Positions 24,103 through 46,539 of a DNA stretch of 64,000 bases are shown here, piece by piece. The stretch spans positions 43,237 through 107,236 of the forward strand of contig CAZIAP010000002.1 of assembly GCA_964537315.1 (NCBI GenBank), given 5' to 3'. The DNA comes from an uncultured Gammaproteobacteria bacterium. GTDB lineage: Bacteria > Patescibacteriota > Microgenomatia > Levybacterales > GWA1-39-11. Each line of letters opens with the position of its first letter. The stretch's first letter is position 1. Position numbers and translations under genes: made by a program. The notes under the pieces were generated by a model. That model saw only the letters and a list, made by a program, of their open reading frames with translations. It did not search any database and had not been told where the DNA came from.

Positions 24103-24729
24103 CTAGTAGATGTGATCAGTATGATTCGAGTAATCTTTTAAATCCGATCCCCATTTTTCAATATAGCCGTCTACTGTTGTGGGTACAAATACTTGTATTT
24201 CCATAACTTCATCTTTAAACTCATTACCTCTTACTGCAAATCCTTGAGAAGCGTAAATATAAGTTTTAAGAAACTTACCAAACATTTCAGATCCAGTAAA
24301 CTCTCGTTCAGGTGTTCCTAAGTTGCTTACCAGTTCAGATAAACTTGGGTATTGCTCAGTTGGGTTAGCTGTTACGATTTTTTCATAGATCACAGTATCA
24401 CCATTAATAATGATTTGATTATCTCTTAATGAGCTTGCAGATTTATAATTATATTGTTTTCCTAGAGAAGTGTCTTCCACGCTTCTTGGTTGTCCTAGCT
24501 GAGCAATCACGTCGCTGGTTGTAACACCAGGGTTTGTTTTTTGCATTGGGATAATTTTATAATTTTGAGAGGTTCTTTCAGTATTGTTGACAGGTGGTTC
24601 GTTACCTACTTGGTTATTGTTGCGAAAATTGTACAAGATTATAACTCCCACAATAAGTGCAATAATACATCCAACTGTGATGATTAGAATCCACATTTTA
24701 TATCTATCAATTAATGCAATGATTTTCAT
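24103..24729 (-). CDS. Hypothetical membrane-anchored extracytoplasmic protein
   Basis: 208 aa. N-terminal TM (MWILIITVGCIIALIVGVIILY) then a soluble domain. First gene of the minus-strand block after dnaN. Confidence 0.4.
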   Translation of the reverse strand: MKIIALIDRYKMWILIITVGCIIALIVGVIILYNFRNNNQVGNEPPVNNTERTSQNYKIIPMQKTNPGVTTSDVIAQLGQPRSVEDTSLGKQYNYKSASSLRDNQIIINGDTVIYEKIVTANPTEQYPSLSELVSNLGTPEREFTGSEMFGKFLKTYIYASQGFAVRGNEFKDEVMEIQVFVPTTVDGYIEKWGSDLKDYSNHTDHIY

Positions 24730-24730
24730 A

Positions 24731-25420
24731 TCAATAGTCTCCTAATATTTTTCTTGCAGTTTCAAAGTGTTTAGGATATTTTCCATCAGCAAAAGGTACT
24801 ACACCGCGCAGTTCACATCCGGTTTGCTCCAGTACATTTCTATTTAAATAGTATGTTATCATTTCCGCGTAATCTTCAGTAATTGGAGGCGTTCCATAAC
24901 AACCTGAAGCACCATAACCTGTCATTCCGCCCTCTGAAACGAATGCATTTTCATGATCCGTAGTTGCTCTTTCTCCATCACCACACCAGTAAATAATATG
25001 ACCAAACTCATGAATCAAAACCACTTTGAATAGTGTTGCATCTCCTCGTGTAATGCCCAGCTCATCTCTTAAGAGAAATGTCTTACAACCTGTTTGTTCA
25101 GACATACCACTATGTGCTGTTACAACAGTTCCACGAACTAAATTGATAAAATTTGTATGTGATACATCCCAATATTTTTCCCACGCCCATTGAAGCTGTT
25201 CTTGGGTAAATCCATTCATTGTTATACCAAACTCATCTATAATTCCTTGCCTAATATCTTGTGGTGGAGGAGGGGCTTCACCACCTTGAGTAGGAGGTTG
25301 TGTTGTTGGATTTCCAACACGGGTTGTTACTTTTTCGCTTCTTGTTTGCGCATAAAGAGATAAACCAAACGAAAAGAATAAAACAAATATTGTAAAAATA
25401 ATAACGCTGCTTTTTTTCAT
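24731..25420 (-). CDS. Secreted protein with HExxH zinc-metallopeptidase motif
   Basis: Signal peptide MKKSSVIIFTIFVLFFSFGLSLYAQ, then VVLIHEFGHIIYW (HExxH) with a downstream Glu. Start placed at ATG 25420; the track's 25435 is a TTG. Confidence 0.45.
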   Translation of the reverse strand: MKKSSVIIFTIFVLFFSFGLSLYAQTRSEKVTTRVGNPTTQPPTQGGEAPPPPQDIRQGIIDEFGITMNGFTQEQLQWAWEKYWDVSHTNFINLVRGTVVTAHSGMSEQTGCKTFLLRDELGITRGDATLFKVVLIHEFGHIIYWCGDGERATTDHENAFVSEGGMTGYGASGCYGTPPITEDYAEMITYYLNRNVLEQTGCELRGVVPFADGKYPKHFETARKILGDY

Positions 25421-25428
25421 GTTTACAC

Positions 25429-25959
25429 TTAACAACCCAAGGGCATTGGGTTGAACTCTGTATTAGTATCTTTAACAGACTGAGACGTGAATGCGCTTAA
25501 GTAAAATACTAGCGGTAAGTAGCAAATATCATTTTGATTAATGCCTTCCTTATTCAAGTAATCTTGAACTTCTTCCTTTGCTTGATTGATGTCAGTAGTA
25601 AGAATTTCTGCCATGAACACATCAGGTGATGCAATATATTCCAATCTATATTTGGCAGTTTTGTGAACAATACCACTTGTATTATTCAGTCTACCAATTA
25701 TTGATTGTCTTGTAGATCTTCCTTGCTCAGATAATTCCTGACGGTTTTGAATAACATCAATCGTTTTTCTTTTGGCCTCAGTGTTATAGGAGACGTTTTC
25801 TCTAATTGCCTTTCCTTGAAATGTTGGGACTGGCGTGGGCTGAGTAGGTGAATCATCAGGCAAGTCCTGTTTACTTAAATTCATGTAAACAACAATTACT
25901 ATACAAGTAATAATAAATACTCCAATGATGGCAAATAATACAGTTACTTTCTTATTCAT
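25429..25959 (-). CDS. Hypothetical membrane-anchored protein
   Basis: 176 aa with an N-terminal TM and a GGGGAGGAAA RBS upstream. No known domain. Confidence 0.4.
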   Translation of the reverse strand: MNKKVTVLFAIIGVFIITCIVIVVYMNLSKQDLPDDSPTQPTPVPTFQGKAIRENVSYNTEAKRKTIDVIQNRQELSEQGRSTRQSIIGRLNNTSGIVHKTAKYRLEYIASPDVFMAEILTTDINQAKEEVQDYLNKEGINQNDICYLPLVFYLSAFTSQSVKDTNTEFNPMPLGC

Positions 25960-28640
25960 CTAGCGTTTCCTCCCCACAAATGATCAGCGCATGCCCAATA
26001 TTCCCACTGCCTTCCGATAGTGACCAAGTATTTATTATAGTTTATCGCGTTTGTTGTTTGTTTTCGCCAATCCACGTCGCCATGGTCAAACTCTCCGTTT
26101 CTACCTCTACCCATTTGGTAAAGACCCCATGCGCCAACTGGGTCAGGTGTCCCAATACTTTCATGAGACGCGTAAGTATTAGGATTATAACCTGGGGCTT
26201 CGCAAGGAATGATATTAAAGAACCACTCATCTGCATGTTGAGGGTCCAGATCCTTAAGTAAAGTATACAGCTTATCTTTATCGCTCGGACGTCTGTTTGT
26301 AAGTAATGAGCAGGATGGGTCTCCGAAGTTTGCTCCTGTGCCATCTTTGTGATAAGGATTATTAAGATCGTAATATCCTTCACAAGTCTCGCTATTTGCA
26401 GGTGTGTCGCCTCCGGAGTGTATAGGAGTACTAGCACCGACTTCTTCAGCCCAAGCTTGATTTTCGACATAAAAATCTGTATTTAAAGGACGAATAGTCA
26501 GGAAGAAAGTTTGAGATTTGACTTGCCCAGGTGAGCCACCATTAAAACTTCCTGTATAAGTTTCTGCTACTGCCTGCATTCTATTTGAAAATCTCTGTTG
26601 GTTGTCTCTGTAATAGCTCCCCCAACTTTCCATAGTGGCTCTCCAGTTGTCTTGCCTTGCAATATCTCCTGCAACTTCAAGGGCATTATTTATAGCGTTA
26701 ATCGCTGGGTCCATCAGAAGTATGGCTATTAGTTGTTGTGCTTGAGCTTCTGCAGCAGTGGTTGGTCGTTGAGTACCAGGTGTTCCAGGTCTTCCTGCTT
26801 GTTGGAGTATTTCTTCAATTGATTTTGCAGGAAATGTAGATGGATTTGTGATACCACCTTCATCAATTACTCTTTGTCCGACTCGTTGCACGGTTGCTGC
26901 ATCGACTGCGCCATAAACCGCCATGAAGTCTTCGGCAAGGTGGTCGACGACTTGTGCGACTTGAACCCCTCCTACTTGCCAATCTCCAGAGTTGAAGCCA
27001 CCTATACAACCTGCATTGATATTGTTACGGCTTAATTCTTGAATGTCATCGCAGTTCCATGAGTAAGGATTTGCTCTTGATCCTTCAATTGCCATAGTCC
27101 ATATTACTGCAAGAAACGGATCAACATATTTTGGATCGTTGTTAGGCGCTTTAGAGAGTATATATGTTTGGTATTGATTAATTAAACTCCCAAGACGGTT
27201 TGCGTTTGCAATATCTTCATTAGAATAAACTGCATCAGATTCTCCACTCGGAGGGAGTAGATTATACGGTGATTGAGTATATTTATTAATATCAATGGTT
27301 TCAGATGAGGGTCGTGGAAGTTCCGGACCAATTATTGCCTGGTTATCATTAAGCGACCATCTGATTCTCGTGACATTACCTAAAGAATTTTCATCTGGAG
27401 TATAGTTTCCGGATGCGCTTACGAACTCTGTGCCAGGCGGAATAGTGTCATAAATCATAACATTTCCAGTCCCGTTATAAGAGACGTTTATCGTGTACAT
27501 AATATCGTCGCCATTTGCAACTTGCGCGGGCGCAGATTTGCTTAAGGTAATTCTTTGAGACGCATCAGGTACAGAAGCAGGAGGTGGAGATGGTTGGGCA
27601 ATATAATAGTCATCGTAGTCAGATTGTCCAGTACTAGTTAAGATGAAAATGAAAAGAATAAGCAAAATAATTATCGCAACAACTACCCAGAACCATGGAC
27701 TTGCTGCAAGAGGAGCAACACGTGCAGCCATTGAGGCAAGTCGAATTCCTTTTCCCATTCTTTGTATACGAGAAAATCTCCCCAGAGAGTTCGCTCTTCT
27801 TCTGGCTTTAGCTCTAATGTTTCTTTGAATATGTTCTCTTGTAAGTCTAGGATCCATTCTTTGTCTAATTGGTGAGGTTGGCATGGAGGGTCGGCTAGGA
27901 TGCGGTGATTCAGATGGGAGAATTCTTTGTTTGACAGTATTGATGGTTTTGTCTACTGCTCTTTGTACAATATCTTGGATCAAACTAGAAGGATCATCAG
28001 TAGGATAGTTGCTAACCTTGTTATCTATTTCGTCCCAGGATGTTGGTTCTATTTCTTCTGGGGGCGTGAATAACGGATGGTTTTTGGCGTAAGGTATATA
28101 ATAGTCTGCTTTTTCAGGAAATGATTTGTTCTTAAAATCTGCAATTGTCTCTTTGTATCTTTGTTTAAGTGTGTCATTTTTTTCTTGTACTGAACCATAT
28201 GTACCTTTTTTAAGCCTTTCAATATGATCTTTTGCTTTCTTCCAATACCTAACTACAGTTGGATCTTTGTCAGGATTGGGTGTAAAGTGTCCTTGGCTTT
28301 TATCACCATGTATGCCTTTTTTAAGATACTTCTGGTAAACATCCGGATGATTTGCTCTCATCTGAGCCTCTGCTGCAAAGATTGCATGATCGTGGGTTCT
28401 TTGATCACGGATTTTCTGCAAACCCTGTAGTGTGGGAAGATTACTTTTGTTAGGAGCTTGTTGCTTAAACCGTTCTTTTTCGCTCGAATAGTACTTTAAA
28501 AATTGTGGATCTTCGTAGAGGTTTAGTGCTGGAAGTTGATAGTCATTTTTAAAGACATTAAGCAATTCCCCTTCAGGAATAGGGGATCCATTAACAAGTT
28601 TTTTCAAGCTCTCAGGTAGTATTGAACTCTCATTATCCAT
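25956..28640 (-). CDS. Large bitopic surface protein (894 aa) with a DUF11-like repeat
   Basis: About 300-aa basic N-region, TM (WFWVVVAIIILLILFIFIL), then a roughly 560-aa C-region containing DIMYTINVSYNGTGNVMIYDTIPPGTEFVSASGNYT (conserved-repeat/DUF11-like). Overlaps the virB4-like gene by 8 nt. Confidence 0.5.
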   Translation of the reverse strand: MDNESSILPESLKKLVNGSPIPEGELLNVFKNDYQLPALNLYEDPQFLKYYSSEKERFKQQAPNKSNLPTLQGLQKIRDQRTHDHAIFAAEAQMRANHPDVYQKYLKKGIHGDKSQGHFTPNPDKDPTVVRYWKKAKDHIERLKKGTYGSVQEKNDTLKQRYKETIADFKNKSFPEKADYYIPYAKNHPLFTPPEEIEPTSWDEIDNKVSNYPTDDPSSLIQDIVQRAVDKTINTVKQRILPSESPHPSRPSMPTSPIRQRMDPRLTREHIQRNIRAKARRRANSLGRFSRIQRMGKGIRLASMAARVAPLAASPWFWVVVAIIILLILFIFILTSTGQSDYDDYYIAQPSPPPASVPDASQRITLSKSAPAQVANGDDIMYTINVSYNGTGNVMIYDTIPPGTEFVSASGNYTPDENSLGNVTRIRWSLNDNQAIIGPELPRPSSETIDINKYTQSPYNLLPPSGESDAVYSNEDIANANRLGSLINQYQTYILSKAPNNDPKYVDPFLAVIWTMAIEGSRANPYSWNCDDIQELSRNNINAGCIGGFNSGDWQVGGVQVAQVVDHLAEDFMAVYGAVDAATVQRVGQRVIDEGGITNPSTFPAKSIEEILQQAGRPGTPGTQRPTTAAEAQAQQLIAILLMDPAINAINNALEVAGDIARQDNWRATMESWGSYYRDNQQRFSNRMQAVAETYTGSFNGGSPGQVKSQTFFLTIRPLNTDFYVENQAWAEEVGASTPIHSGGDTPANSETCEGYYDLNNPYHKDGTGANFGDPSCSLLTNRRPSDKDKLYTLLKDLDPQHADEWFFNIIPCEAPGYNPNTYASHESIGTPDPVGAWGLYQMGRGRNGEFDHGDVDWRKQTTNAINYNKYLVTIGRQWEYWACADHLWGGNAR

Positions 28641-31191
28641 GGTTTATCGATCCGGAGGGAGGCGGTGTTCCAGAAGGTTTCGGAGTCTGAGGGGTTGGTG
28701 GTGGTGCAGGATTCGGAAAATTAGACGCAGTTGGCATTTGTGAACGTGCCATATTCGCAGTGTGGTAGGTGGCTTGCCCTCCAGAGTTGTTCATAACGGG
28801 TGCAGCTTGTCCTGGAGCTTGTGGTTGAGGCGGCATAGGCTGTTGTGGTGGCGTATTTGGTTGTTGAGGCTGCTGAGTCTGTTGAGCGGGAATAGTGTTT
28901 GCATTAATAGATGACATGTCTGCAGGTGCCTGCTCTATAGTAGGTGGTTGTACGGTTGGTTGGGTGGGTGGAGTCGGGGCTTGGCTACCTGCAAAACCCA
29001 TAGGTCGGTCTATTGCAAGTTCAGGCGCAGCCTGTGGAGCTATTTGTTCGTGTGTTTCCTCTTGTGGGGTAGGAGTAGAGATATCAGGAATTGGTGCCTC
29101 TTGTCCTGAACCAGACGGATCAGGTGAAGCTGCGTCATTTTTTTCTTGCTGCTCTAAAAGATCCTGAGGTTTTGAAGTGATCAGATCGTACTCGAATTGG
29201 GAAGCGATAAACTGAGCAGAGATATGATTTTGTCCAGCAAAAAGCAACCCTTCTCCAACTTGCGCAGTTAGTAAAAATTGCTTCTCACCTTCTGAAAGGA
29301 AAAATGCTTTTGCGAGAGCCTCAACACCTGAGGTACCTTGTTTAAGTAATATCTGAATTGAGGAGTTAGAAACAATAGCTTTTCCATAATCATTATTCAA
29401 AAAATCTTCAATATCTTGTGTAAGAGTTGTCATACCCAGATAATATTTTCGAGCTCGTTTGGCGATTCCTTGTAAAAAGCTTGCTGAATCCGGATACTTC
29501 ATCATGTACCAAGCCTCATCAACGATGAGCAGTCGTTTTTTTAGCTTAGTACGAACACGACTCCAGATAAAGTCTAAGATGACGTGCATTGCAATCGGTC
29601 TTAAAGCATCTTCAAGTTGTTTAATAGAGAAAACAGTTAGCTGACTGCGAATGTCATAGTTAGTTTGAGCATTGAGAAGCCCTGCAAAACCTCCTTTGAC
29701 GAACTTTTCCAATCTAAATGCAAGTTCTTTTGCTTCTTGTTCTTCCATATTCAACAGAGTTTTGTACAAATCTTCTAAAATTGGTGGCTCTTTATCATAT
29801 GTAGCAGGGTCAGGAGTTATGCCTTTTTGTTTATATACAAGGACGAGCGACCTATCAAGGATGGCTTCCTGAGTAGGAGTCATCTCTCCAACCATGGTTT
29901 TAAGAAGTCCGTGTAATGAAAGAATTTTAATGCCAAGTTGAGCATCCGTTCGGTCTTCTGAAAGAAGAGCAAATGGATTGATTGCCACCTCTGAGTTTTT
30001 CGAAAAGTTAATATATTCTCCGCCAAGCGAAGCACACAGGGTTCTATACTCGTCTTCTGGGTCAATGATCAGGATCTCTGCGTCAAACATCATTTGTCGC
30101 AAGATCTCAAGTTTTACTAGGAAAGACTTACCCGAACCGGACTTACCGAAAACTACTTGGTTAGCATTCTCAAAAGAGAATCTATCGACGATAACCAGAG
30201 AATTATTTAATGTATTAACGCCATAAAGAATCCCATTTGGTTGTGATATTTCATATGATGTAAACGGAAAAGTGGATGCCACAGATGTAGTGTCCATATT
30301 TCGGGTGATGAACAACTTGTCTGACCCATAGGGCATAGTGGTTTTAAACCCTTCTTCCATTTGTAGAGTTGCTGATTTCATAAGCAACATGTTTGAGGCA
30401 AGCAGAGTCTGCAATTGTTTGGATTTTTCTTCCAGTTCGTTAGGATTGTCAGCGGTTATAGTTACATATAGTCCAAACTGATAAAAACGTTCTAGTCCTC
30501 GAGCTAATTCCTCGCGTAAAGCAATCGCGTCTTCAAGAGATGCCTGAACTTTGGGATCTGGTTCCAGACCTGCTTTGTAATCGGCATCTAGAGTTGCTTC
30601 CATTTCTGCTATCTTGCGTCTGAGATTTGAGAGTACATCTTTGCTTTCGACAGGGTAAATAAACATGGATATGTTCATAGTCTCTTTGTGATCTATAAGA
30701 ATTGAGAGCCAGTTTGGAGAAACTTCGCGTGGATAATCAGCCACAAAGAAAGTCCTAAAATACCTATCTCCAACCCGTACGTGCTTAAAGTCAACTTCTA
30801 CCGACGGAGGGGCAATTACATCAGCAAGCGAAACAGAGCCTTGTTTTAAAGCATCAAGCGTAGCTCTCTGAGCAGTTGCTGCTTGTTGGGGTGTGGTTCC
30901 ATTTGGCATGACTACAGCCTGTCCAATATTTGGAGCTTGTGGTTGAGTAGGAGTAGCAGGTGCTTGAGCAGGCGCTGGTGGAGGTGTATTAAGTACGGAT
31001 TGAGGCTGTGCGGGCATTGTAGGTTGTGCTTGAGGCATTCCTTGCCCTGAGACTTGTTGTGGTTGTTGTACCGGTATACTTCCAGCAGGTTGAGTTGGTA
31101 CACCATTAGGAAAAGCGGTACCACCTTGATTCACGGAAGGCGTAGCAGGTTGTTGAGATTGTTCTGATTTTTTATTAAATATGTTAAACAT
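28633..31191 (-). CDS. virB4: VirB4/TrbE/CagE-family type IV secretion ATPase with long P/Q-rich low-complexity N- and C-terminal extensions
   Basis: DFKHVRVGDRYFRTFFVADYPREVSPNWLSIL (CagE_TrbE_VirB N-domain). Walker A VVFGKSGSGKSFLVK. Walker B KKRLLIVDEAWYMM. About 120 aa N-terminal and about 200 aa C-terminal stretches are Pro/Gln/Thr/Ala-rich. Confidence 0.8.
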   Translation of the reverse strand: MFNIFNKKSEQSQQPATPSVNQGGTAFPNGVPTQPAGSIPVQQPQQVSGQGMPQAQPTMPAQPQSVLNTPPPAPAQAPATPTQPQAPNIGQAVVMPNGTTPQQAATAQRATLDALKQGSVSLADVIAPPSVEVDFKHVRVGDRYFRTFFVADYPREVSPNWLSILIDHKETMNISMFIYPVESKDVLSNLRRKIAEMEATLDADYKAGLEPDPKVQASLEDAIALREELARGLERFYQFGLYVTITADNPNELEEKSKQLQTLLASNMLLMKSATLQMEEGFKTTMPYGSDKLFITRNMDTTSVASTFPFTSYEISQPNGILYGVNTLNNSLVIVDRFSFENANQVVFGKSGSGKSFLVKLEILRQMMFDAEILIIDPEDEYRTLCASLGGEYINFSKNSEVAINPFALLSEDRTDAQLGIKILSLHGLLKTMVGEMTPTQEAILDRSLVLVYKQKGITPDPATYDKEPPILEDLYKTLLNMEEQEAKELAFRLEKFVKGGFAGLLNAQTNYDIRSQLTVFSIKQLEDALRPIAMHVILDFIWSRVRTKLKKRLLIVDEAWYMMKYPDSASFLQGIAKRARKYYLGMTTLTQDIEDFLNNDYGKAIVSNSSIQILLKQGTSGVEALAKAFFLSEGEKQFLLTAQVGEGLLFAGQNHISAQFIASQFEYDLITSKPQDLLEQQEKNDAASPDPSGSGQEAPIPDISTPTPQEETHEQIAPQAAPELAIDRPMGFAGSQAPTPPTQPTVQPPTIEQAPADMSSINANTIPAQQTQQPQQPNTPPQQPMPPQPQAPGQAAPVMNNSGGQATYHTANMARSQMPTASNFPNPAPPPTPQTPKPSGTPPPSGSINHG

Positions 31192-31266: not shown

Positions 31267-31884
31267 TTATAATATTATATTTGTTATGTCATCTGACTGA
31301 AAATCTAGAGAAACTGTTTCCTGGTTATATAGTTCGTAGAGTACTTTTGCCACCTCGCTAGATTCAAGCGGTCGTGCAGATAGACCCATACGTTGAATCT
31401 GGCTTAAAACTCCGGCCTGCTTGCTATTCACTGCTTCTTTAATGCGGTCTTGCAGGGTCATCTTTTTGTTGGTAATTGGTCCAAGTTCAAGAGAAGAGAA
31501 GGGAATTACAACATAGATTTTTTTATCGAGCAAATTTTCACCTTTTACCAGCTCTTGGATGAATTGCTTGTACATAATAAGGTGCTCTGATAGATTTGGA
31601 TCCTGAGTTTTCTCTATTTTTGATTCTAGCATAGATAGATACTCGGTCATGTCAACTTTTTTAGAAACGATAAAAATCTGGATAGCAGATGAAAGTGAGT
31701 TCAGAAATGACATGAATCCGTATATTCGCGCATTCTGTTCCTCTGTTGAAAGTAGGAAAAAATTGACAGATGATACTTCAAGAATTGAAGCCGCATTGTT
31801 CCCTTTTAAGAACAAGATACCGTCTTTAATATCTTCTACTTCTGTAAATCCTTGTGTTGTTGATTGTATTTTTGCTTTAGCCAT
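31267..31884 (-). CDS. Hypothetical soluble protein (205 aa) in the T4SS-like locus
   Basis: ORF with no TM and no recognisable motif. Confidence 0.4.
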   Translation of the reverse strand: MAKAKIQSTTQGFTEVEDIKDGILFLKGNNAASILEVSSVNFFLLSTEEQNARIYGFMSFLNSLSSAIQIFIVSKKVDMTEYLSMLESKIEKTQDPNLSEHLIMYKQFIQELVKGENLLDKKIYVVIPFSSLELGPITNKKMTLQDRIKEAVNSKQAGVLSQIQRMGLSARPLESSEVAKVLYELYNQETVSLDFQSDDITNIIL

Positions 31885-34979: not shown

Positions 34980-35025
34980 ATCTAACTGATTATGGACATA
35001 TATGGAATTAGTTGTCAAGAGGTAA

Positions 35026-38036: not shown

Positions 38037-38080
38037 ATATTCATCATATCCATACACGTATAATGAAAGCAAGTTGAAAT

Positions 38081-39388
38081 TTATTCTGAGAACTTAAGCC
38101 CTTTGCCTTTTACTGTGAGGATGTATTGTGGATTATTTGGGTCTGATTCTATTTTTTTACGCAGCCTATAAACTATCTGATCTAGAGCTTGGTCAGTAAC
38201 ACCTTCTTGAGTCTTTGAGTCAGTCCATACTGCGTTTATAATGCCTTCTTTTTCTACAGTTTTACCTTTATTAACTAACAAATGTTTAAGTAAGCGAAAT
38301 TCAGATGGTGTAAGGTTATCAGAAATATCGACATCACCTTTATATATCTCGTTAAGCTCTTCATTATGTGTAAATTCTTCTTTTTTTTCTTTAATGGTCG
38401 ATAAAAAAGTCTCAAAAATAGGAATGGATATTTTTCCATTGTTTAGTAGTCCAACCAACTCAAGAAACTTTGCTTCGTCTGTATGATTCTTAAGATTTTT
38501 TACGATATGTTGTTCTTCAGTCGTGAGGTAATTCCAGATCTCTGTTAAAGCACCTCTCATTTGCCTGTGGTTGAGTAGGTGAGCTTCAAGATCTTTAGGA
38601 GTTTCGTTTTCTGATAAAAATGCCTCATATGCAATTTTCACTAGCTTACCGTGTCCGCCTGTTAGCTCCATGAGCTTTTCACGAGCATCTTCATTTTTTT
38701 TGCCTGCAACTTGCTCGATGTAGTTGAGCCTAAAGTCAGGCTCATCAGGATGAGACATCTTCATAAATATTGAGTTGCCGATTAAAAATTCATAAAACTC
38801 AGCGAGAGTAGAGGTGTCAATCAGTAAATCGATAGGTCGAGATAGGGCGAATACACAAGAAAATTTATATTTTGCCCGATTGCGCAGAATCTTTAGATTA
38901 ACGAAAAATTGATCTGTTAAATCTTGTGAATATTGTTCAAGCCGATCGATTAAAAAGACTACAGACATATCTTTTTCAAGTGCCAGATAGTCAATAGATT
39001 TTTTTAAAGCCTGGAAAAGTACTAGCTCATCGTTAAACTCAATGGCTTCTTTTAAGAAGGCATTTATTTGAGTACTTTCAGTAGTCATTCCGCGCTCACT
39101 AAGTGAATATCCAAGAGAGATGAGTATAAATTTTGTGACGTCAGATAGAGGTCTGCTCCTAACCTCAGAAAAATCCATATATACAAAATGATATTTTTCT
39201 TGATTTTCTAAATGGTATTCACGTACTTTGCGGTTGTAAGCCAGCAACCTCAAAAGTCGACTTTTTCCAACTCCCGGCAATCCTAATACTTGGCTTGATG
39301 CACCTTTTTTTACGAAGCCAATAACTTTTGAAATTTCTTCATGCAATGAATTTTCAGGGTAAAGTGATTCGAAATATTTGGGTTCCAT
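38081..39388 (-). CDS. P-loop NTPase (AAA/STAND-like) fused to a C-terminal OmpR/PhoB-type winged-helix DNA-binding domain
   Basis: Walker A VLGLPGVGKSRLLRLL, Walker B MSVVFLIDRLE. C-terminus LTPSEFRLLKHLLVNKGKTVEKEGIINAVWTDSKTQEGVTDQALDQIVYRLRKKIESDPNNPQYILTVKGKGLKF matches trans_reg_C (LTPKEFxLL...R--L---VWG------R-VDVHI-RLRKKLE-DP--P-YI-TVRG-GY-F). Confidence 0.6.
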   Translation of the reverse strand: MEPKYFESLYPENSLHEEISKVIGFVKKGASSQVLGLPGVGKSRLLRLLAYNRKVREYHLENQEKYHFVYMDFSEVRSRPLSDVTKFILISLGYSLSERGMTTESTQINAFLKEAIEFNDELVLFQALKKSIDYLALEKDMSVVFLIDRLEQYSQDLTDQFFVNLKILRNRAKYKFSCVFALSRPIDLLIDTSTLAEFYEFLIGNSIFMKMSHPDEPDFRLNYIEQVAGKKNEDAREKLMELTGGHGKLVKIAYEAFLSENETPKDLEAHLLNHRQMRGALTEIWNYLTTEEQHIVKNLKNHTDEAKFLELVGLLNNGKISIPIFETFLSTIKEKKEEFTHNEELNEIYKGDVDISDNLTPSEFRLLKHLLVNKGKTVEKEGIINAVWTDSKTQEGVTDQALDQIVYRLRKKIESDPNNPQYILTVKGKGLKFSE

Positions 39389-39410: not shown

Positions 39411-39424
39411 TTACTAATAACAAA

Positions 39425-39790
39425 TTAAAGCTGCTTATCATTTTTATTAGCTGTATGAATTATAGCATTGAAGATCAGGTTGAGCTCTTTTGCTTCTTGG
39501 ATAATTTTTTCGGCGTCACTTGCTAAATCTGGAGAAGCATGTTTGATCATAAGTAGCCAGTGAATTGTTTCTTTTGATTCTTTCTTACATATTCCAAGTT
39601 TATGCTTGAAATCTAGTCGACTTTCAGCATTATCAGCTTCGCAATAGTTTGCACCAACGCTAGTAGAGGACCTAACTAATTGGGATATGAGAGGGAGAGT
39701 AATAGCAGTTCGTGGAACTGTTTTACAGAATGCAATTGTGTTTTCCCCAAACTTGCGTGTTCTTTCTTCAAGATCATATTTTCTGATCAT
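39425..39790 (-). CDS. Four-helix-bundle protein (TIGR02436; formerly '23S rRNA intervening-sequence protein' family)
   Basis: MIRKYDLEERTRKFGENTIAFCKTVPRTAITLPLISQLVRSSTSVGANYCEADNAESRLDFKHKLGICKKESKETIHWLLMI matches the family hallmark (Y-L-ERT--F---I--------------QL-RS-TSIGANY-EA----S--DF--K--I--KE--ET-YWL-L). Confidence 0.65.
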   Translation of the reverse strand: MIRKYDLEERTRKFGENTIAFCKTVPRTAITLPLISQLVRSSTSVGANYCEADNAESRLDFKHKLGICKKESKETIHWLLMIKHASPDLASDAEKIIQEAKELNLIFNAIIHTANKNDKQL

Positions 39791-39805
39791 ATTACATTAT
39801 ATCAA

Positions 39806-39917: not shown

Positions 39918-42900
39918 ATGAAAGAACAATTGACACGCTCACCGAATCTAACGTACTCTAATAGTATGGAAGATAGTGGAGAAAAAAATATTTATCACGC
40001 GGAAGATAAAATTCAAGATAAGTCACCGAAAGTATCAAAGATTTCAAGAATAACTCAGCAAGAAGAAAAAGATAGGATTGATAAAATTATTAGTGGTGCT
40101 CCTGCATTACATCAAGAACCCTTACGGCAATCTCTTTACGAAGCATATTTTACAGCTTCATCCACCGAAGCAGAAGACTCTTCTCGTATAGACGAAATAA
40201 GAAAAGAACTTGATGAGACAGTTTCAGATTCCGACGAGAACAATGAAGATATTATGGAAAGATTGGGAAGAGCTGAACAAGAATTAGGGAGAAATCTTAA
40301 TGCTCAAGAAAAAGCAGCCATAATTGCAGCTCATAATGTGGGCGAAAATGAGCAGGGAAAAGACGGATCAGAGGCAGGAATAAATAACTATACATTTTCT
40401 CAGTTGAGAGAAAAAGCAAAAATTCTTAAAGGGGATGACGAGCAGAAAGGTTTTTCTAAAGAGGAAAGACGTAAATTGATGGAAGCAGGTATTGTGGGAG
40501 AGGAGAGAGATAAACAGGATTTGCGTAGTACACCTGAAAGGTTAGTTGAGTTAAGTGAAGCTCAACTTCGTGAGCAAGAAGCTATTAGAAAAAATACTGA
40601 TACTATGGTTCAGCAGCTAAGCGAATTACTAAGCATATCTGCAGAAGAACGAGATATACTGCGTAAACTTAGTGATGAACAAATGGAAAGGCTTATTCAA
40701 TCAATTGAGTTTAGCAAGACAACCTTTGAAGAATATATTGAAAAGTCAATTCGACAAGGACTTGACGATCCTAAAGAAAGAAAAACTAATGAAGTTGTAA
40801 TGGAAGCGATTAGTAAAGTAAGTGCAGAGGAGTATGAGACTTATCGTAATGCAGAATCAAAAGTAAGATCTGAGAGAAATCGTGTAATATTCTCATATGC
40901 CAATGCAGTGAAAGATAATTTTAAAGGAGGAGAATACCTAGAAGATGATGAATGGAGCGGAACTGTGGAAGAGTATATCAGGAGGGAAGTCGATCGGGTA
41001 GGAGAAGTACTAGATGATTTAGAAGATAAATTTATTAGTGGTGATTTAAACGATCTAGAAGTACAAAGAGAACTAAGGAATATTTCAAAAGATAGTGAGC
41101 GTATCCAAAACGAAGCAAATATTTTAGCAGGAATAGACCCTCAAGAAAGAAGAGGTAGAGGAAAAGCTGTTAAAAATATTGAAGAATTAATGAAATTTAT
41201 AATGGAGCTTCATCCGGATTACTCAGAAGAGGGTAACTATCCATTAATATACCCTCCTGAACATGAACAAGCAGGAGAAATTAATCAAGGAAATTTTATT
41301 CAGTGGATTCGCGACCAGTTGTCGCATTATCATAACCAAGACGCTGATAACCCACAGGTAAACTTTTTCGGTAATATCAGTGTGGAAGTTGAATCCCAAG
41401 GCTATACGAGAACTGTTAATGTTTTACAGATGATCAATAATCCCGGCGTATTTTTTAAGAGCAAAAACGGACATGTCTTGAATGGTTTGAGAGATGAAGT
41501 TGAGCGCACGATATGGCAATACTCAACAAATCGCAATAATAGAATTGCATATTTTCAGTCAATGCCTCTTGACACCAAAATTGCTGATGTTGTTGCGGCA
41601 ATCAACTCAAATAATGCACTCACAAAGCCTGCATATGAAGGCAAAAGTCCTCTCTACTGGAATTTGACTCAATCTGAAAGATATGAAAACGAGACTCGTT
41701 TGGATGCACGGGTAGGAGAGGGTATAGTTGCTGGAACGATGATTTATTATGACATTACTGATTACGAAGCTCTTAAAAAACGTTGTGCACCAATCAAAGA
41801 TGCTGAAGGAAAAGACGATGTTTCCCCTCTTTTTGATTTAAATAAAATAAAAGCAGCAGCACAGAGTATTTTGATCTCTAATAAAAGACCGGATTATGAT
41901 AAATACTTTACAGAAGACACCTGGGCTGAGATTAGTAGTTGGTTTGATGACAACGGAGTGTTAAAAGATGGAAGTGGAGATAAGTGGATCAAGTTTTTTA
42001 ATCCTTATGAACCACAACAAGACACAAGGAAGCTCGAATTACTTCGCGCATTAATTGCTGAAGAGATCTCTAGAAGAACCGGTCTGAATAGTAATGCCGC
42101 AAAATATGCCGAGCAGTGGGCACAGTTTCAAATTGATTTCATGTTGATATCAGCTCGAGGTGGTGTAGGAGCTGCTGCGTATAACGGGGCTGAAAAAGGA
42201 CTTCGAATGCTTGAATATTATGAGCGTGCATGGAGTGATACTAAACCAGGTTTGGGTAACCCAAAAGCTTTAGGTTTACTTGTTGCGCCTGGAGTTGATT
42301 TTCTCATCGGCACTCAAGTTAGATCTTCAGAGTTTAAATTAGCGGAGGTAAGTAAGGCAACAGATTCTAAAGGAAACTTTAACAAAGTCAATATTGTAGA
42401 ATTTGATGAAAAGGGTGAACCGGTTAAGGTAAGCCATACACTTAAAGATAACCAAGAGGTACTTTACGTAGGTAGTAAAATTATTTCGAGCAAAACAAAA
42501 GGGGAGATAATCAGCTTCGAGGAACGAGAAAAAATTGCGGCATTTACCTTATTGGACGACAAAGAAGAAATTTTAGAAAATGCTGAAGTAAAAGAAAATG
42601 CTAATACTGGAGAGTTCACAGTATTCGTGAATGGTCAAGAATATAAATCGTACAAACCAAGCGAAGAAGATGGAAAATATACAAATCATTACGAATTGGT
42701 TGGGGAAAGAAAATATAAGATTACGAAACGTGAATGGCATTTTGATGATGCGCTTGGACTCAATACTAAGGATAAAAGAGTGGTTGTAGAAGTTGATGAG
42801 CAAGGAAACAGACGTTACTTAGGAGAGTTAAAAGAAAATGAGAGGGTAGATCTAGGAGGAAATACACTTAAGTCAATGCAAGAGGTGAGGGTACGGGAGA

Positions 42901-44105
42901 AAGTTTTTATTGGAGGACAGTTAGCCTACACACTTAAAGATGGAGAAAGCACAGAGCAATCTGGAGATCAAATATGGATTATAAAAGACGGAAAAGTAAT
43001 TAAAAAGTTATGGGCAAGGATTAATAAAGATGGAAATTCTTATAAAAGAGAAATTCAACATGTTGACGTACGATATACTACCGTGAACGGTGAAGAAACA
43101 GCGGTGGAAGGTGCAATCCAAACGCATAAAACAACTAATTTAGATAACTCAGAGATTAAAATTAAGAAAGAAAGAGTGATTGAAGAGTGGCGTGAGCATC
43201 AGCTTTCTACCTATGATGTATTACAACATATGGACGAAACTCGATCGGAGTGGCAAGAACGTATTAATCAAGCAACCACGAAGGAGGAAAAGGATCGTCT
43301 TAGAAAGGAAGCGGATGATAAAGTTCAATATTGGGCATTAAAGCTTGAGTGGGGGTCAGATGAACAACGTCAGTTTGCGCAAAATCAGTTTGGTCGGGCA
43401 ATGCAACTTTTTCATGAGTATGGGCAAAAATTTGTAATCGATCCTAGAAGCCTATATAGCTACGATGAAAAAAAGGGGTTTGTATTTGATCAAGGAAAGC
43501 TCCAAGAAGAGATTGGTGAAAAGCTTATAAAACCTAGACGTTATGCATTTAGAACATGGCCTCATCTTGACATGAGTAGGATTGTCAGAGCTCCAGATCC
43601 AGAAAACAAATTTGAATATAGAGAGATGTTTTTGGCTGAAGCAATTTTCGGCAGACAAGTCCTTGAAACATTTCGTAGAAAAGACGGTACGATTGACTTT
43701 GAATTTTTAAGTAGTAGAGACGGAATAAAAGAGTTGATAAAAACTGAGGCATTACTTAGGTTGGCTGCAGATGAAATGTATTTTGAAGATCTCGACATGC
43801 TTACACCAAGGCTCGGCTTACAGGCTAAGTTAGCATACCGTAAAGGTATATTTACTCTTTCTGATGGAATTTCGATTGACTATAGAAACGTAAAGAACAA
43901 TAAGGTGAGTAATGGGTTTTTCGGAGCCCGTAAAATTTCTTTTAATGAATATGGACCTTCATTTGAGCAGGTTTATAACAAAGCTACTGGAGCTTCACCA
44001 CTCTCCATAATACGAAAAGAAACACAAAATGCAGTGCTTTTTCAGGGGTTCAGAGGAGTTTTTGATGCTGTAAAGGAAGTAGTCGGATCAGCATTTAAAT
44101 CATAA
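39918..44105 (+). CDS. Giant hypothetical protein (1395 aa), highly charged (E/K/D/R-rich), coiled-coil-prone N-half. No TM, no recognisable catalytic motif.
   Basis: Single uninterrupted 4.2-kb ORF. The N-terminal 450 aa are dominated by E/K/R/D heptad-like stretches. I see no Walker motifs or HUH relaxase motif. Confidence 0.6.
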   Translation: MKEQLTRSPNLTYSNSMEDSGEKNIYHAEDKIQDKSPKVSKISRITQQEEKDRIDKIISGAPALHQEPLRQSLYEAYFTASSTEAEDSSRIDEIRKELDETVSDSDENNEDIMERLGRAEQELGRNLNAQEKAAIIAAHNVGENEQGKDGSEAGINNYTFSQLREKAKILKGDDEQKGFSKEERRKLMEAGIVGEERDKQDLRSTPERLVELSEAQLREQEAIRKNTDTMVQQLSELLSISAEERDILRKLSDEQMERLIQSIEFSKTTFEEYIEKSIRQGLDDPKERKTNEVVMEAISKVSAEEYETYRNAESKVRSERNRVIFSYANAVKDNFKGGEYLEDDEWSGTVEEYIRREVDRVGEVLDDLEDKFISGDLNDLEVQRELRNISKDSERIQNEANILAGIDPQERRGRGKAVKNIEELMKFIMELHPDYSEEGNYPLIYPPEHEQAGEINQGNFIQWIRDQLSHYHNQDADNPQVNFFGNISVEVESQGYTRTVNVLQMINNPGVFFKSKNGHVLNGLRDEVERTIWQYSTNRNNRIAYFQSMPLDTKIADVVAAINSNNALTKPAYEGKSPLYWNLTQSERYENETRLDARVGEGIVAGTMIYYDITDYEALKKRCAPIKDAEGKDDVSPLFDLNKIKAAAQSILISNKRPDYDKYFTEDTWAEISSWFDDNGVLKDGSGDKWIKFFNPYEPQQDTRKLELLRALIAEEISRRTGLNSNAAKYAEQWAQFQIDFMLISARGGVGAAAYNGAEKGLRMLEYYERAWSDTKPGLGNPKALGLLVAPGVDFLIGTQVRSSEFKLAEVSKATDSKGNFNKVNIVEFDEKGEPVKVSHTLKDNQEVLYVGSKIISSKTKGEIISFEEREKIAAFTLLDDKEEILENAEVKENANTGEFTVFVNGQEYKSYKPSEEDGKYTNHYELVGERKYKITKREWHFDDALGLNTKDKRVVVEVDEQGNRRYLGELKENERVDLGGNTLKSMQEVRVREKVFIGGQLAYTLKDGESTEQSGDQIWIIKDGKVIKKLWARINKDGNSYKREIQHVDVRYTTVNGEETAVEGAIQTHKTTNLDNSEIKIKKERVIEEWREHQLSTYDVLQHMDETRSEWQERINQATTKEEKDRLRKEADDKVQYWALKLEWGSDEQRQFAQNQFGRAMQLFHEYGQKFVIDPRSLYSYDEKKGFVFDQGKLQEEIGEKLIKPRRYAFRTWPHLDMSRIVRAPDPENKFEYREMFLAEAIFGRQVLETFRRKDGTIDFEFLSSRDGIKELIKTEALLRLAADEMYFEDLDMLTPRLGLQAKLAYRKGIFTLSDGISIDYRNVKNNKVSNGFFGARKISFNEYGPSFEQVYNKATGASPLSIIRKETQNAVLFQGFRGVFDAVKEVVGSAFKS

Positions 44106-44140
44106 TTATAAATGAACTTCTTATTCTGACCATTTCTTCT

Positions 44141-45844
44141 CTAACTATTTTCTTGACCCTGATTAGTTTCTCGTTGTCGTCTTGCTCTTTGTTCTGCATT
44201 GTATTGTGCTTCTAACCGTTGAGCCTCAATTCTCTCTTGTGCATCTCTTCTCATCTGTCCAATTTTTCCTCCAACGGGTCCGCGAGACCAGAACTGCTCT
44301 AAGCGAGGACGAACATTCCCTCTCCATATAATTGCGCCCGTTCCTTTTGGATTACCATTTGCATCAGTTTCAAAAAGCTTGCTACCAACCTTTTTAGGTA
44401 TAGCAGAAGCTGCAGATGAACCAACTCCGAATGCTGCTCCAACAGCTCGTTGGTACGAAACGGTTGGAGCTTTAAGCGTATCTTTAACCATATTTACAAC
44501 TTCTGTAGTCATTAACAAAACAGCAATGCCTATTAATGCGCTAAAATATTTAGGATTAATTGCTCCACCAATAAAAGGAGGAGTGAAGTGATCAGCTCCT
44601 CCTCCGCTGAACATCTGTGCAAACACAGAACCGAGCAGGAACATAAAAAGTGTTACCGGAAAAACTGCAATATAGGCAAAAATATGCTTAAACCAAGACC
44701 CTGCATTGAGAGGTGAACCAGGGATAAGACTGCCAGCAATCCAAATGGGGGCAACAACTGTATCAATAAGTATAAATAAGTATGCTTTTAACAATAAGAA
44801 CCAGAGTCTTAACAATGCATAGAGAAGTGCAAAAGTTATAATGAAAAATGCTATTGTACCTCCTAATACGCCAATTAGATCATATGGTGAAAAAGATCTA
44901 TATATCGGTACATCAATTCCGGTAACTCTCTCTATCGCATAAAATGGCGCTGTAGCAGGGTTTAGCAAATTAAAAGCATCGGTAAATATTTGTCCAAAAA
45001 ATGTTTCAGCTACGCTTCCCTCAAGAATGCTGGTAATTATATGTCCAATTTCAAATGATGCGTTTTTAACAATATCAAAACCTCCAAAAAATCCTAGAAC
45101 TCCAAAGGGAGTTTGACCCTGTATTTTTGTCGGATCTAAGCTAGAAAGATTCGCTCCAGTTCCAAGCATAATTTGATAAAAAAGATACATAAAAAGATAC
45201 ATAATATCTATTAAAAATCCTGATATGGCGTATGAAAATGTAATTAAAATTAATACAATTACTGCTTTTGGAATCGCGTTCTGAATTGTCATTACGGACC
45301 TTGGATCAATATTAAATCTGAAAATTATTCCGATCCCCATAATCATGAAAATGATTACAAACAATACATAAATTATGTTTCTAAATGCTGTCCACGTGGC
45401 AAGAAGTGGATTTAATGCTCTAAAGCCATGTCCTTCTTGTGCATATGTTGATTTTATGACCCCGAAGTTGGAAGCAGTGTGTTGAATGTATTGACCGGTA
45501 TTAATAGGTACATCAAAAGTCCAAGCAATCATACTACCTACAGCTCCAATCGCACCTCCTCCATTTTCCACAAATCCGATTTGTCCTGACTTTGGATCAA
45601 CTCCCAGACATTTAGTCGATGGGTTTACCGGATCGACACCTGTTAGCTGGCAGGAAATTGCCGCCATTACTTCAATCAGAACCATCTGTGTATGAGTACC
45701 GTAATTTTGAGGAACGTCGCTGTTTACACGCCCAGGTAAAGCACTAGAAGTGGCTGTAGTAGCTGGTGCTTGAGCAAAAATTACCGGGGCTGAAAAGTTC
45801 AGGAAAAAAGCGACGAAAAACAGCACGGCGAGCAGGCGTTTCAT
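44141..45844 (-). CDS. VirB6/TrbL-like polytopic membrane protein
   Basis: Signal peptide (MKRLLAVLFFVAFFLNFSAPVIFA), an extracytoplasmic segment, at least 6 TM helices (IIYVLFVIIFMIMGIGIIF; IVLILITFSYAISGFLIDIMYLF...), and a C-terminal cytoplasmic charged tail (QRARRQRETNQGQENS). This architecture and its locus context fit VirB6/TrbL. Start at ATG 45844; the track's 45898 is a TTG. Confidence 0.5.
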   Translation of the reverse strand: MKRLLAVLFFVAFFLNFSAPVIFAQAPATTATSSALPGRVNSDVPQNYGTHTQMVLIEVMAAISCQLTGVDPVNPSTKCLGVDPKSGQIGFVENGGGAIGAVGSMIAWTFDVPINTGQYIQHTASNFGVIKSTYAQEGHGFRALNPLLATWTAFRNIIYVLFVIIFMIMGIGIIFRFNIDPRSVMTIQNAIPKAVIVLILITFSYAISGFLIDIMYLFMYLFYQIMLGTGANLSSLDPTKIQGQTPFGVLGFFGGFDIVKNASFEIGHIITSILEGSVAETFFGQIFTDAFNLLNPATAPFYAIERVTGIDVPIYRSFSPYDLIGVLGGTIAFFIITFALLYALLRLWFLLLKAYLFILIDTVVAPIWIAGSLIPGSPLNAGSWFKHIFAYIAVFPVTLFMFLLGSVFAQMFSGGGADHFTPPFIGGAINPKYFSALIGIAVLLMTTEVVNMVKDTLKAPTVSYQRAVGAAFGVGSSAASAIPKKVGSKLFETDANGNPKGTGAIIWRGNVRPRLEQFWSRGPVGGKIGQMRRDAQERIEAQRLEAQYNAEQRARRQRETNQGQENS

Positions 45845-45906
45845 ATATATACAGTATGGGGGAATATTTGATACAAAGTCAACTTTTTTAAGCTTCAAAT
45901 TAGCTG

Positions 45907-46539
45907 TTGATGTCTATCTTATTGACAACTTTTAGATGGATAGGTATGATTAGGCAAATTAATATAAGGAATATGAACCGTTATTTAGTAATTATTTTGT
46001 TCGCCATATTCCATTTTTCTGCTGCCCCTTTTTTTGCCCAAACTATTACCATTACGGCAACCGATAGCGCTAAAGCCTCAACTCCTCCCGCCCAAATTCA
46101 GTACGAACTACCTTATCCGGGAATATTGCCTGATCATCCATTGTATTTTCTTAAAGTCGCTCGTGACAGAATCGTTGGATTTTTAATCAACGATCCTGTG
46201 AAAAAAGCAGAGTTTAATTTACTTCAGTCGGATAAAAAGCTATTTGCTGCTCGGATGCTTTTTGATGACGATAAAGACAAGTTGGGTTTTGAAACTCTCT
46301 CGAAAAGTAACAACTATATGCATCATGCAATATCTGAGGCAAATCGTGCAAAAGAAATGAACCGTAATACAGATGGAGTAGTGCAAAAAATGGGCGCTTC
46401 ACTAGCAAAGCATAGAGAGGCAATAAGAGAGATTATACGGACAGACACTCAGTATAAAAAACAACTAGAAGGAGAAGAAAAAAGGTTGAACGAAATAAGG
46501 GCTCTTTACCTGCAATATTTTTCTCAACAAGGGAACTAA
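45907..46539 (+). CDS. Hypothetical secreted/membrane-anchored protein
   Basis: N-terminal hydrophobic segment (YLVIILFAIFHFSAAPFFAQ), then a soluble domain ending in coiled-coil-like sequence. The true start may be the internal Met. Confidence 0.4.
   Translation: MMSILLTTFRWIGMIRQINIRNMNRYLVIILFAIFHFSAAPFFAQTITITATDSAKASTPPAQIQYELPYPGILPDHPLYFLKVARDRIVGFLINDPVKKAEFNLLQSDKKLFAARMLFDDDKDKLGFETLSKSNNYMHHAISEANRAKEMNRNTDGVVQKMGASLAKHREAIREIIRTDTQYKKQLEGEEKRLNEIRALYLQYFSQQGN

Follow-up and report, generated by a model that had tools for sequence, protein, structure and literature searches.

A probable Patescibacteria type IV secretion system encoded between dnaN and nrdR in a Levybacteria genome

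Translocon core, pilins and envelope components of the locus

We analysed a stretch of 64 kb from contig CAZIAP010000002.1, hereafter called the window, and in it a locus of 22 kb (24103-46539) that resembles a type IV secretion system (T4SS). This locus consists of 18 tightly packed open reading frames (ORFs; g01 to g18, Table 1), of which 15 have minus and three have plus orientation. Directly to its left lie dnaA and dnaN, the latter ending 4 bp before the locus, and on the right the border is formed by nrdR and a ribonucleotide reductase gene. An independent gene prediction for this contig (Logan SRR7082968, also a 173-kb NCBI contig) agreed with the ORFs except at four starts, which it placed at later codons: g10 (153 aa), g16 (1379 aa), g17 (567 aa) and g18 (188 aa). 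For g10 the true start is probably at 34979, giving a protein of 153 aa. A preliminary description, made from the sequence alone, had stated that more than half of the genes belong to no recognisable family. This was overstated, as about 4 of the 18 genes are unassigned. It had also overlooked several components, namely a PrgI/VirB3 protein, a TrsD protein, a lysozyme-like domain and a VirD4-like coupling protein.

The central gene of the locus is g05. The VirB4-like ATPase of the preliminary description is recovered here with a score of 408 bits (cutoff 325) against NCBIfam NF045971 (“VirB4-like conjugal transfer ATPase, CD1110 family”), covering model positions 174-732, and with 8e-33 against Pfam P-loop_TraG. 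The sequence shows intact Walker A (GKSGSGKS) and Walker B (LLIVDEAW) motifs. A grouping of this ATPase with FtsK/HerA had been named beforehand as a check on the T4SS assignment, since the locus could consist of an FtsK/HerA-type ATPase surrounded by unrelated membrane proteins and not be a T4SS at all. g05 does match DUF87, the HerA central domain (2.9e-10), but with 41 bits only, far below the VirB4 equivalog, which is passed over its cutoff. FtsK_SpoIIIE does not match it, the CedB and TrbE models reach about 43 bits each (CedB 2e-11), and PrgI, TrsD and T4SS_pilin genes are adjacent. We rejected the FtsK/HerA explanation, the probability of which we regard as practically negligible. Low-complexity P/Q-rich extensions are present at both ends of the protein, about 110 aa long at the N-terminus and about 190 aa long at the C-terminus. 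The nearest plasmid VirB4s, which are CD1110-family genes of Firmicutes and Actinobacteria with 28-37% identity, are without these extensions, and their matches span only aa ~113-738 (mostly ~113-690).

Directly upstream of g05 lies g06, which aligns with positions 11-181 of the CD1110 VirB4 model (5e-8), with positions 112-283 of VirB4_plasma (2e-10) and with the TrsD model NF041427 (9.5e-10), all three scores being below the curated cutoffs. Since g06 covers positions 11-181 of the VirB4 model and g05 positions 174-732, VirB4 is encoded in two pieces. The next gene, g07, had been noted as a CarboxypepD_reg-like protein. The domain is present at the C-terminus with an E-value of 5e-6, under the gathering score, and the protein proved to be PrgI/VirB3 (PF12666 PrgI, 7e-10, 39.7 bits, gathering score 27). 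According to the positive-inside rule its beta-sandwich would be located in the cytoplasm.

Four VirB2/TrbC-like hairpin proteins had been proposed and four are found. Three of them (g09, g10 and g11) pass the gathering score of PF18895, and g10 and g11 have in common a 101-nt direct repeat of 75% identity. The fourth hairpin is the C-terminus of g13. Pfam detects it only weakly (E 0.02), whereas a hidden Markov model (HMM) trained on 206 pilin segments from related loci, hereafter the lineage pilin HMM, finds it at residues 510-579 with 1.5e-19. The ectodomain preceding this hairpin has no match in the PDB, and we consider g13 a candidate for a pilus-associated adhesin.

The polytopic protein g17 belongs to a family of 322 homologues, almost all of which are unannotated. 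Among 30 aligned homologues two match Pfam TrbL (best 1.4e-7), and one homologue with 41% identity bears a precomputed PF04610 assignment. Of the bitopic proteins, g04 contains the DUF11-like repeat reported before (28.3 bits against TIGR01451, cutoff 24). A profile of its conserved C-terminal 155 aa found exclusively C-type lysozymes among the 60 PDB matches listed (best E 0.0096); the lysozyme catalytic Glu aligns to the invariant E814 of g04 and a G-L-F/Y-Q-M motif is conserved. Neither Pfam SLT nor CHAP matches g04. We regard it as a weak but coherent candidate for a VirB1/PrgK-type cell-wall hydrolase. The two small bitopic proteins g01 and g03 were considered as VirB8-like proteins; profile searches of the PDB gave only noise from transmembrane segments (ATP synthase b, DotF). 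g01 has no Pfam or NCBIfam match and its profile search found no PDB sequence match; homologues of it adjoin dnaN in 10 related loci. For g03, 15 homologues were found in related loci, and its profile likewise had no PDB sequence match.

Table 1. Positions of the ORFs of the locus and of further genes named in the text (window coordinates; TM, transmembrane segment; T4CP, type IV coupling protein)
Gene	Position	Strand	Length	Feature	Basis or remark
dnaA	21412-22809			dnaA	directly left of the locus
dnaN	22998-24098			dnaN	
g01	24103..24729	-	208 aa	bitopic, TM 14-32, external domain of ~150 aa	
g02	24731..25435	-	234 aa	secreted HExxH zincin	signal peptide
g03	25429..25959	-	176 aa	bitopic, conserved Cys pair	holds the PrgL (VirB8-like) slot of pCF10
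g04	25956..28640	-	894 aa	bitopic, TM 317-335, DUF11 repeat and C-terminal lysozyme-like domain	
g05	28633..31191	-	852 aa	VirB4 ATPase core	NF045971, P-loop_TraG
g06	31267..31884	-	205 aa	TrsD-like, VirB4 N-terminal domain encoded separately	VirB4/TrsD models
g07	31918..33279	-	453 aa	PrgI/VirB3-like, two TM, basic P/Q-rich linker, CarboxypepD_reg-like beta-sandwich	
g08	33395..34099	+		six-TM membrane HExxH protein, site-2-protease-like	
g09	34115..34459	-		VirB2-like T4SS pilin	PF18895 3.9e-10; lineage pilin HMM 3.8e-32
g10	34518..35084	-		VirB2-like pilin, Sec signal peptide	PF18895 7e-10, TrbC 3e-4
g11	35026..35394	-		VirB2-like pilin, g10 paralogue	PF18895 9e-9
g12	35487..36122	-	211 aa	acidic lipoprotein	lipobox LLAAC
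g13	36294..38072	-	592 aa	signal/anchor, ~480-aa Cys-rich ectodomain, C-terminal VirB2-like hairpin	
g14	38081..39388	-		P-loop (AAA_35/STAND-like) NTPase with OmpR/PhoB-type winged helix	Trans_reg_C 4e-19, AAA_35 1.7e-5
g15	39425..39790	-		23S_rRNA_IVP/Avd-like four-helix bundle	PF05635 3.7e-13
g16	39918..44105	+	1395 aa (called 1379 aa)	acidic cytoplasmic protein	isoelectric point 5.1
g17	44141..45898	-	585 aa	polytopic, signal peptide and about 6 TM, VirB6/TrbL-like	by transitivity
g18	45907..46539	+		DUF5667 protein, N-terminal signal/anchor	PF18915 9.8e-9
T4CP	58858..61281	-	807 aa	VirD4-like coupling protein, N-terminal TM	Walker A GKTGVGKS, Walker B LYVDEF; 12 kb from the locus

Chromosomal position and conservation in related genomes

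A scan with one genome per species yielded at least 170 stretches encoding relatives of the VirB4 protein, and all comparisons refer to the best 80 of these at least 170 loci. All 80 belong to metagenome-assembled genomes of Levybacteria or Patescibacteria, with VirB4 identities of 52-81%; many of the records are titled generically “uncultured Gammaproteobacteria”. TrsD is found in 78 of the loci, directly upstream of virB4, and PrgI in 77 with its C-terminal domain conserved. Pilins were counted in 46 loci, the pilin fusion in 30 and the regulator g14 in 24; for genes further away, flanks of 10 kb limit these counts. The related loci average about 4.5 pilin segments each. In the 30 loci with a pilin fusion the g13 homologue heads the pilin array, and its ectodomain is variable.

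The position of the locus on the chromosome is constant. In all 53 loci with at least 8 kb of flank, dnaN is convergent and located 0.04-6.6 kb downstream of virB4. The same place between dnaN and nrdR is occupied in every relative that could be inspected, which answers the comparison of synteny called for by the preliminary description. The conserved order runs dnaA-dnaN, variable genes, virB4-trsD-prgI, pilins, pilin fusion, regulator, g16, virB6, DUF5667 gene and nrdR. Furthermore, VirB4 identity correlates with the identity of DnaA (rho 0.70) and DnaN (rho 0.72). The fixed dnaN neighbourhood and the co-divergence of VirB4 with DnaA and DnaN indicate a vertically inherited chromosomal locus and not a mobile element. 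The window has five perfect DnaA boxes (TTATCCACA), of which four are clustered at the dnaA start and in the spacer towards dnaN (21429-22876), together with one further box containing a single mismatch. This cluster is likely to represent oriC, which would place the origin about 1.2 kb from the T4SS locus. The cumulative GC skew shows no switch of sign at the cluster.

The interval between virB4 and dnaN is variable and in L002, the closest relative among the loci listed, includes M23-like and other secreted proteins. The same locus contains an insertion between the S2P-like (site-2-protease-like) gene and prgI (L002 positions 3470-7590), which codes for three proteins, one of 938 aa with coiled coils, one of 309 aa that is acidic and tail-anchored, and one of 120 aa; none of the three occurs in the window. 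Several other loci show a gap of about 5 kb at this site. Membership of the 938-aa protein in the g16 family was not detectable.

A further T4SS component is encoded outside the locus. The VirD4-like type IV coupling protein (T4CP) scores above the Pfam gathering scores of T4SS-DNA_transf, TrwB_AAD_bind and TraG-D_C, and among NCBIfam models it matches SXT_TraD (5e-15) and CD1115 (9e-10). It belongs to a second, small T4SS-related cluster (58738-62708) composed of a tRNA-Ile gene, the T4CP gene, an ORF for a 180-aa acidic His-rich protein, a tRNA-Ser gene and a TraX-family gene. TraX is the family of the F-pilin acetylase. In four related loci (L070 and L078-L080) the T4CP orthologue is located directly beside prgI, which ties the distal T4CP of the window to the system.

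The presence of VirB4, a T4CP and a TraX-family gene, the two tRNA genes flanking the T4CP and the fact that the best plasmid matches sit in conjugative plasmids are also what a conventional integrative and conjugative element (ICE) or the remnant of an integrated plasmid would offer. Against this stands that no relaxase or integrase was recognised by Pfam or NCBIfam in any ORF of at least 110 aa in the 64-kb window, as the preliminary description had stated, and that no excisionase gene was found there either. DnaA is the only replication-initiator family among these ORFs. The locus is bordered by dnaN and nrdR, its position is identical in the 53 related contigs, it diverges together with DnaA and DnaN, and the identity to plasmid VirB4s is just 28-37%. 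There is no shift in GC content that would mark the locus as an island, no tRNA-flanked island structure surrounds it, and the repeat search found no long direct repeats bracketing it. The inverted repeats found either bracket the g15 cassette or sit upstream of nrdR; nothing connects them with nicking, and for oriT this lineage has no consensus. On the grounds of the lack of a recognised relaxase or integrase in the window, the fixed position beside oriC and the co-divergence we rejected a conventional ICE, the second outcome that the preliminary description had named as refuting, and consider this origin of the locus very improbable.

Relation to known systems and proposed function

A T4SS common to Patescibacteria has been described by Quinonero-Coronel et al. 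(2025) across 3,035 genomes (PMC12102498). According to that survey the VirB4s of Patescibacteria form a monophyletic clade nested in MPF_FATA, and the parts of the system are TrsD, PrgI, VirB6 and arrays of 2-11 divergent VirB2-like pilins. VirB4 is split in most Patescibacteria, with a separate TrsD, and VirB8 is rarely found. Relaxases are almost absent, the T4CP is usually encoded elsewhere, and proximity to dnaA/dnaN was noted in particular for Paceibacteria and Microgenomatia (PMC12102498). Wang et al. (2023) found a homologous, relaxase-less cluster to be essential for S. epibionticum and proposed that it exports proteins or has some other role apart from conjugation (PMC10633639). A review of 2025 counts the Patescibacteria system as a new T4SS type (PMC12857230), and tubular structures, possibly T4SS pili, have been observed at the interface between parasite and host (bioRxiv 10.64898/2026.06.21.733656).

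The locus agrees with this clade, and with its prototype in Ca. Southlakia epibionticum ML1 (SEML1_0006-0019; PMC10633639), in the affinity of VirB4 to MPF_FATA, TrsD beside virB4, PrgI/VirB3, a candidate VirB6-like protein and a divergent pilin array. That its VirB4 would fall in the monophyletic clade is supported indirectly, by the Levybacteria or Patescibacteria origin of all 80 nearest loci and by the low identity (28-37%) of the best plasmid relatives. Genes for candidate lysozymes and peptidases downstream of virB4, the lack of a relaxase, a T4CP gene away from virB4 and the location next to dnaA/dnaN are likewise shared. The survey found VirB6 homologues scarce in Microgenomatia and 22.6% of VirB3 homologues near virB4 (PMC12102498); in contrast, a VirB3 homologue is clearly present and linked in our locus, together with a candidate VirB6 homologue. 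Differences from the clade are the fusion of PrgI to a CarboxypepD_reg-like domain and of one pilin domain to a 500-aa ectodomain. In addition, a STAND-type regulator with a winged helix-turn-helix (wHTH) domain and a protein of about 1,400 aa are conserved in the Levybacteria locus, for which we found no description in PMC12102498 and PMC10633639.

Among systems outside Patescibacteria the Prg/Pcf system of the Enterococcus faecalis plasmid pCF10, also MPF_FATA, offers a parallel in gene order. Its VirB4 belongs to the same NCBIfam family (CD1110), and its order PrgH-PrgI-PrgJ-PrgK(871 aa)-PrgL(208 aa) parallels g07-g06-g05-g04(894 aa)-g03(176 aa). Common to both is a core of PrgI, VirB4, a bitopic hydrolase (putative for g04) of about 870-890 aa and a small bitopic protein, as is a monoderm architecture without VirB7/9/10. 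The preliminary description had called for the unknown products to be compared with Prg models. In these comparisons hhalign was negative for g01 and g03 against PrgL, for g17 against PrgH and for g04 against PrgK, so that at the sequence level no similarity of g04, g03 and g17 to PrgK, PrgL and PrgH was detected. Moreover pCF10 encodes the relaxase PcfG, MobC, an oriT, an adjacent T4CP and LPXTG adhesins and is without VirB2-like pilins, whereas the Levybacteria locus has a split VirB4 and pilins and no DNA-processing genes were found in it. The small VirB4-N-terminal homologue just upstream of the VirB4 ATPase is shared with the staphylococcal Trs systems of pGO1/pSK41 (TrsD/TraD), which, unlike the locus, are plasmid-borne, conjugative and without pilins. 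With the Gram-negative VirB/D4 and F-type systems it shares VirB2/TrbC-like hairpin pilins with a conserved loop, and the TraX-family gene in the window. In contrast to these systems, no homologue of VirB5 or VirB7-VirB11 was identified in it, it has no outer-membrane core, and its pilins belong to a separate Pfam family, PF18895.

Taken together, we consider it very probable that the locus is a chromosomal, non-conjugative and vertically inherited Patescibacteria T4SS of Levybacteria, derived from MPF_FATA, which is fixed beside oriC and would contact a host and move macromolecules. The preliminary description had favoured a role in protein secretion or cell contact over conjugation, and this view holds in the light of the missing relaxase and integrase, the fixed dnaN-nrdR place and its agreement with the published view, with the T4CP 12 kb away as a caveat. 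An interpretation in terms of contact and secretion is not new; it has already been published (PMC12102498, PMC12857230, PMC10633639). The inner-membrane translocon would be built from PrgI/VirB3, VirB4 split into TrsD and the ATPase core, and a divergent VirB6-like channel protein. The membrane-anchored lysozyme-like g04, at the position of PrgK, would open the cell wall. From the array of VirB2-like pilins a pilus or tube would be assembled that makes contact with the host bacterium, perhaps with the ectodomain-pilin fusion as its tip or decoration, and the S2P-like g08 beside the pilins may process them. The machine would then move macromolecules, either effectors out or host material in. 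We assume translocation rather than conjugation because no recognised relaxase, oriT or integrase accompanies the locus. The genes between virB4 and dnaN, for the secreted zincin and for small anchored proteins, may represent a variable zone of accessory or effector functions.

The substrate could alternatively be nucleic acid: host DNA or RNA could be taken up, as by H. pylori ComB or archaeal Ced, or DNA could be exported independently of a relaxase, with the VirD4-like ATPase and g16 handling the substrate. The function of the Patescibacteria T4SS has been called “completely unknown” and the acquisition of nucleotides through it has been proposed (PMC11665869). The T4CP, which is inside the locus in some relatives, the neighbouring nrdR and ribonucleotide reductase genes, the weak similarity of VirB4 to CedB and the conserved, cytoplasmic g16 with its invariant Arg, Lys and Tyr residues are compatible with such a role. 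However, Pfam found no DNA-binding, nuclease, ComEC-like or relaxase domain in the locus, the similarity to CedB is far weaker than that to conjugative VirB4s, and the adjacency of nrdR may be a coincidence. In S. epibionticum the t4cp homologue was not essential, in contrast to other T4SS genes (PMC12102498). We therefore regard nucleic-acid trafficking as unlikely.

Alternatively, VirB4 could serve only to build VirB2-like fibres with the ectodomain-pilin fusion for attachment to the host, and no substrate would be translocated. Such a function restricted to adhesion would fit the four pilin-domain genes, the number of pilin segments in related loci, the hypervariable ectodomain-pilin fusion and the lack of a T4CP inside the locus of the window; the pilin arrays have also been interpreted as host-range adaptation (PMC12102498). 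On the other hand, the T4CP is kept in the genome and adjoins prgI in relatives, secreted hydrolases are conserved beside virB4, and for adhesion Patescibacteria are already equipped with type IV pili (PMC10633639). A purely adhesive pilus appears quite unlikely to us. 

Several points weigh against the non-conjugative secretion system that we prefer. A T4CP is present, which is typical of DNA-transferring systems, and the product of this gene 12 kb away may couple nucleic acid or effectors. A relaxase might be encoded beyond the 64 kb or be of a family that escapes recognition. For the VirB6/TrbL-like protein of the preliminary description, homologues lead to TrbL, whereas g17 itself has no direct Pfam match and finds no counterpart in PrgH by hhalign. 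In an AlphaFold2 (AF2) model of g17 (predicted local distance difference test, pLDDT, 71) the top Foldseek match was TrwI/VirB6 of R388 (7o3v_F), but this match was not significant (E 0.12, template modelling scores 0.16/0.26). The VirB6 assignment is an indirect one, by transitivity. The lysozyme-like and S2P-like assignments of g04 and g08 rest on E-values of about 0.01-0.03, and no VirB8-like protein of the NTF2-fold was identified at the locus by PDB profiles and hhalign of g01 and g03. Finally, the role in contact or secretion is one that we infer.

In the one species in which this was tested, the Patescibacteria T4SS is essential, and among candidates for the way in which ultrasmall episymbionts exploit their hosts it ranks first. 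The Levybacteria locus adds nothing categorically new to it; it provides a clean, fully syntenic example from Microgenomatia, in which the almost unannotated family of g17 would fill the slot of VirB6, found scarce in this group by the survey. Moreover, it draws attention to conserved accessory parts, namely the regulator of the STAND-wHTH type, the fusion of ectodomain and pilin, the S2P-like protease and the protein of about 1,400 aa, for which no fold was recognisable.

Accessory genes and further features of the window

The 1395-aa acidic protein g16 was confirmed as such. It belongs to a family with 132 cluster representatives among 1.84 billion proteins. Searches of Pfam, NCBIfam, PADLOC and the sequences of the PDB gave no match, the sequence and profile searches of the PDB returning low-complexity or coiled-coil noise, and Pfam scans of 30 family members gave sporadic SHOCT and GvpG matches and nothing else. 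An AF2 model of aa 400-1395 reached a pLDDT of 81.6 and a predicted template modelling score (pTM) of 0.75, with two modules above 93. None of the Foldseek matches of this model was significant (best E 0.21 in the PDB and 0.085 in BFVD). The family is rich in invariant Arg, Lys and Tyr residues; its strongest motif, RWTGAAARNDT, is diverged in the g16 of the window to ISARGGVGAAA. 

In five of five independent metagenome loci with flank the g16 homologue adjoins VirB6, and in the four in which the flank reaches far enough the STAND-wHTH gene is located on the opposite side. Linkage is likewise seen in L047, L057, L022, L034 and L037, and in L082 g16-VirB6 is followed by DUF5667-nrdR-ribonucleotide reductase exactly as in the window. 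Candidate roles for g16 are those of an effector, a scaffold or a substrate-processing enzyme. One may speculate that g16 founds an undescribed family with a new fold and is a core partner of the Levybacteria T4SS, acting as relaxase substitute or nucleic-acid handler or as the principal translocated effector, and that together with g13 as a VirB5-like tip adhesin it defines a distinct T4SS variant of Microgenomatia. We consider this quite unlikely.

The P-loop-wHTH regulator of the preliminary description, g14, is upheld by its Trans_reg_C match. Homologues occupy the same position in 24 related loci and in four metagenome loci, by which g14 is best described as a locus-linked, dedicated regulator. 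Its neighbour g15 is flanked by a 26-nt inverted repeat (39401-39426 and 39811-39836, 88% complementary) and its homologues occupy varying positions in other loci. g15 is probably a small, inserted mobile cassette that stands outside the machine. A reading of g15 as part of a diversity-generating retroelement was rejected, as the window contains neither a reverse transcriptase nor a pair of template and variable repeats (TR/VR).

Both proteins with an HExxH motif, one membrane-bound and one secreted, had been predicted correctly, and in both the motif is invariant among homologues. In g02 H142, E143, H146 and E187 are invariant in 12 homologues. Its single PDB similarity was to Zmp1/Pro-Pro endopeptidase and not significant (E 0.7), with the HExxH and E..AE motifs aligned. 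g08 has the invariant motifs PG..HE..H and NTMFSSxKDxEG; the best PDB profile match was the S2P of M. jannaschii (3b4r, E 0.026) with HExxH aligned, and a g08 homologue adjoins the pilin array in six loci. The lipoprotein signal of g12 was confirmed. Family matches of g12 are confined to N-terminal lipoprotein signals, and none of the 80 related loci yielded a homologue. L082 has a counterpart of g18 that is arranged in the same way with respect to VirB6 and nrdR.

In the spacer between the DUF5667 gene g18 and nrdR (46545-46771) we noticed a 32-nt inverted repeat of 84% complementarity, the arms of which are 163 nt apart and which has no Rfam match. A scan for promoters and terminators gave counts equal to the shuffled expectation and is thus uninformative. 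At the edge of the window (755-4378) four consecutive plus-strand ORFs of 171, 477, 329 and 216 aa are located, for which no Pfam or NCBIfam match and no significant PADLOC match was found; they may constitute an uncharacterised defence-like or accessory island. A defence system was also considered for g14, g15 and g16 and was rejected, as PADLOC gave nothing significant for these genes or for the four ORFs. An AdoCbl-II riboswitch (49818-49897; 38.1 bits, just over the gathering score) is located upstream of a cobalamin adenosyltransferase gene and downstream of a TSCPD-domain ribonucleotide reductase gene. Beside smpB (53282-53695) the window further encodes a transfer-messenger RNA (Rfam, 118 bits), which ARAGORN had missed.

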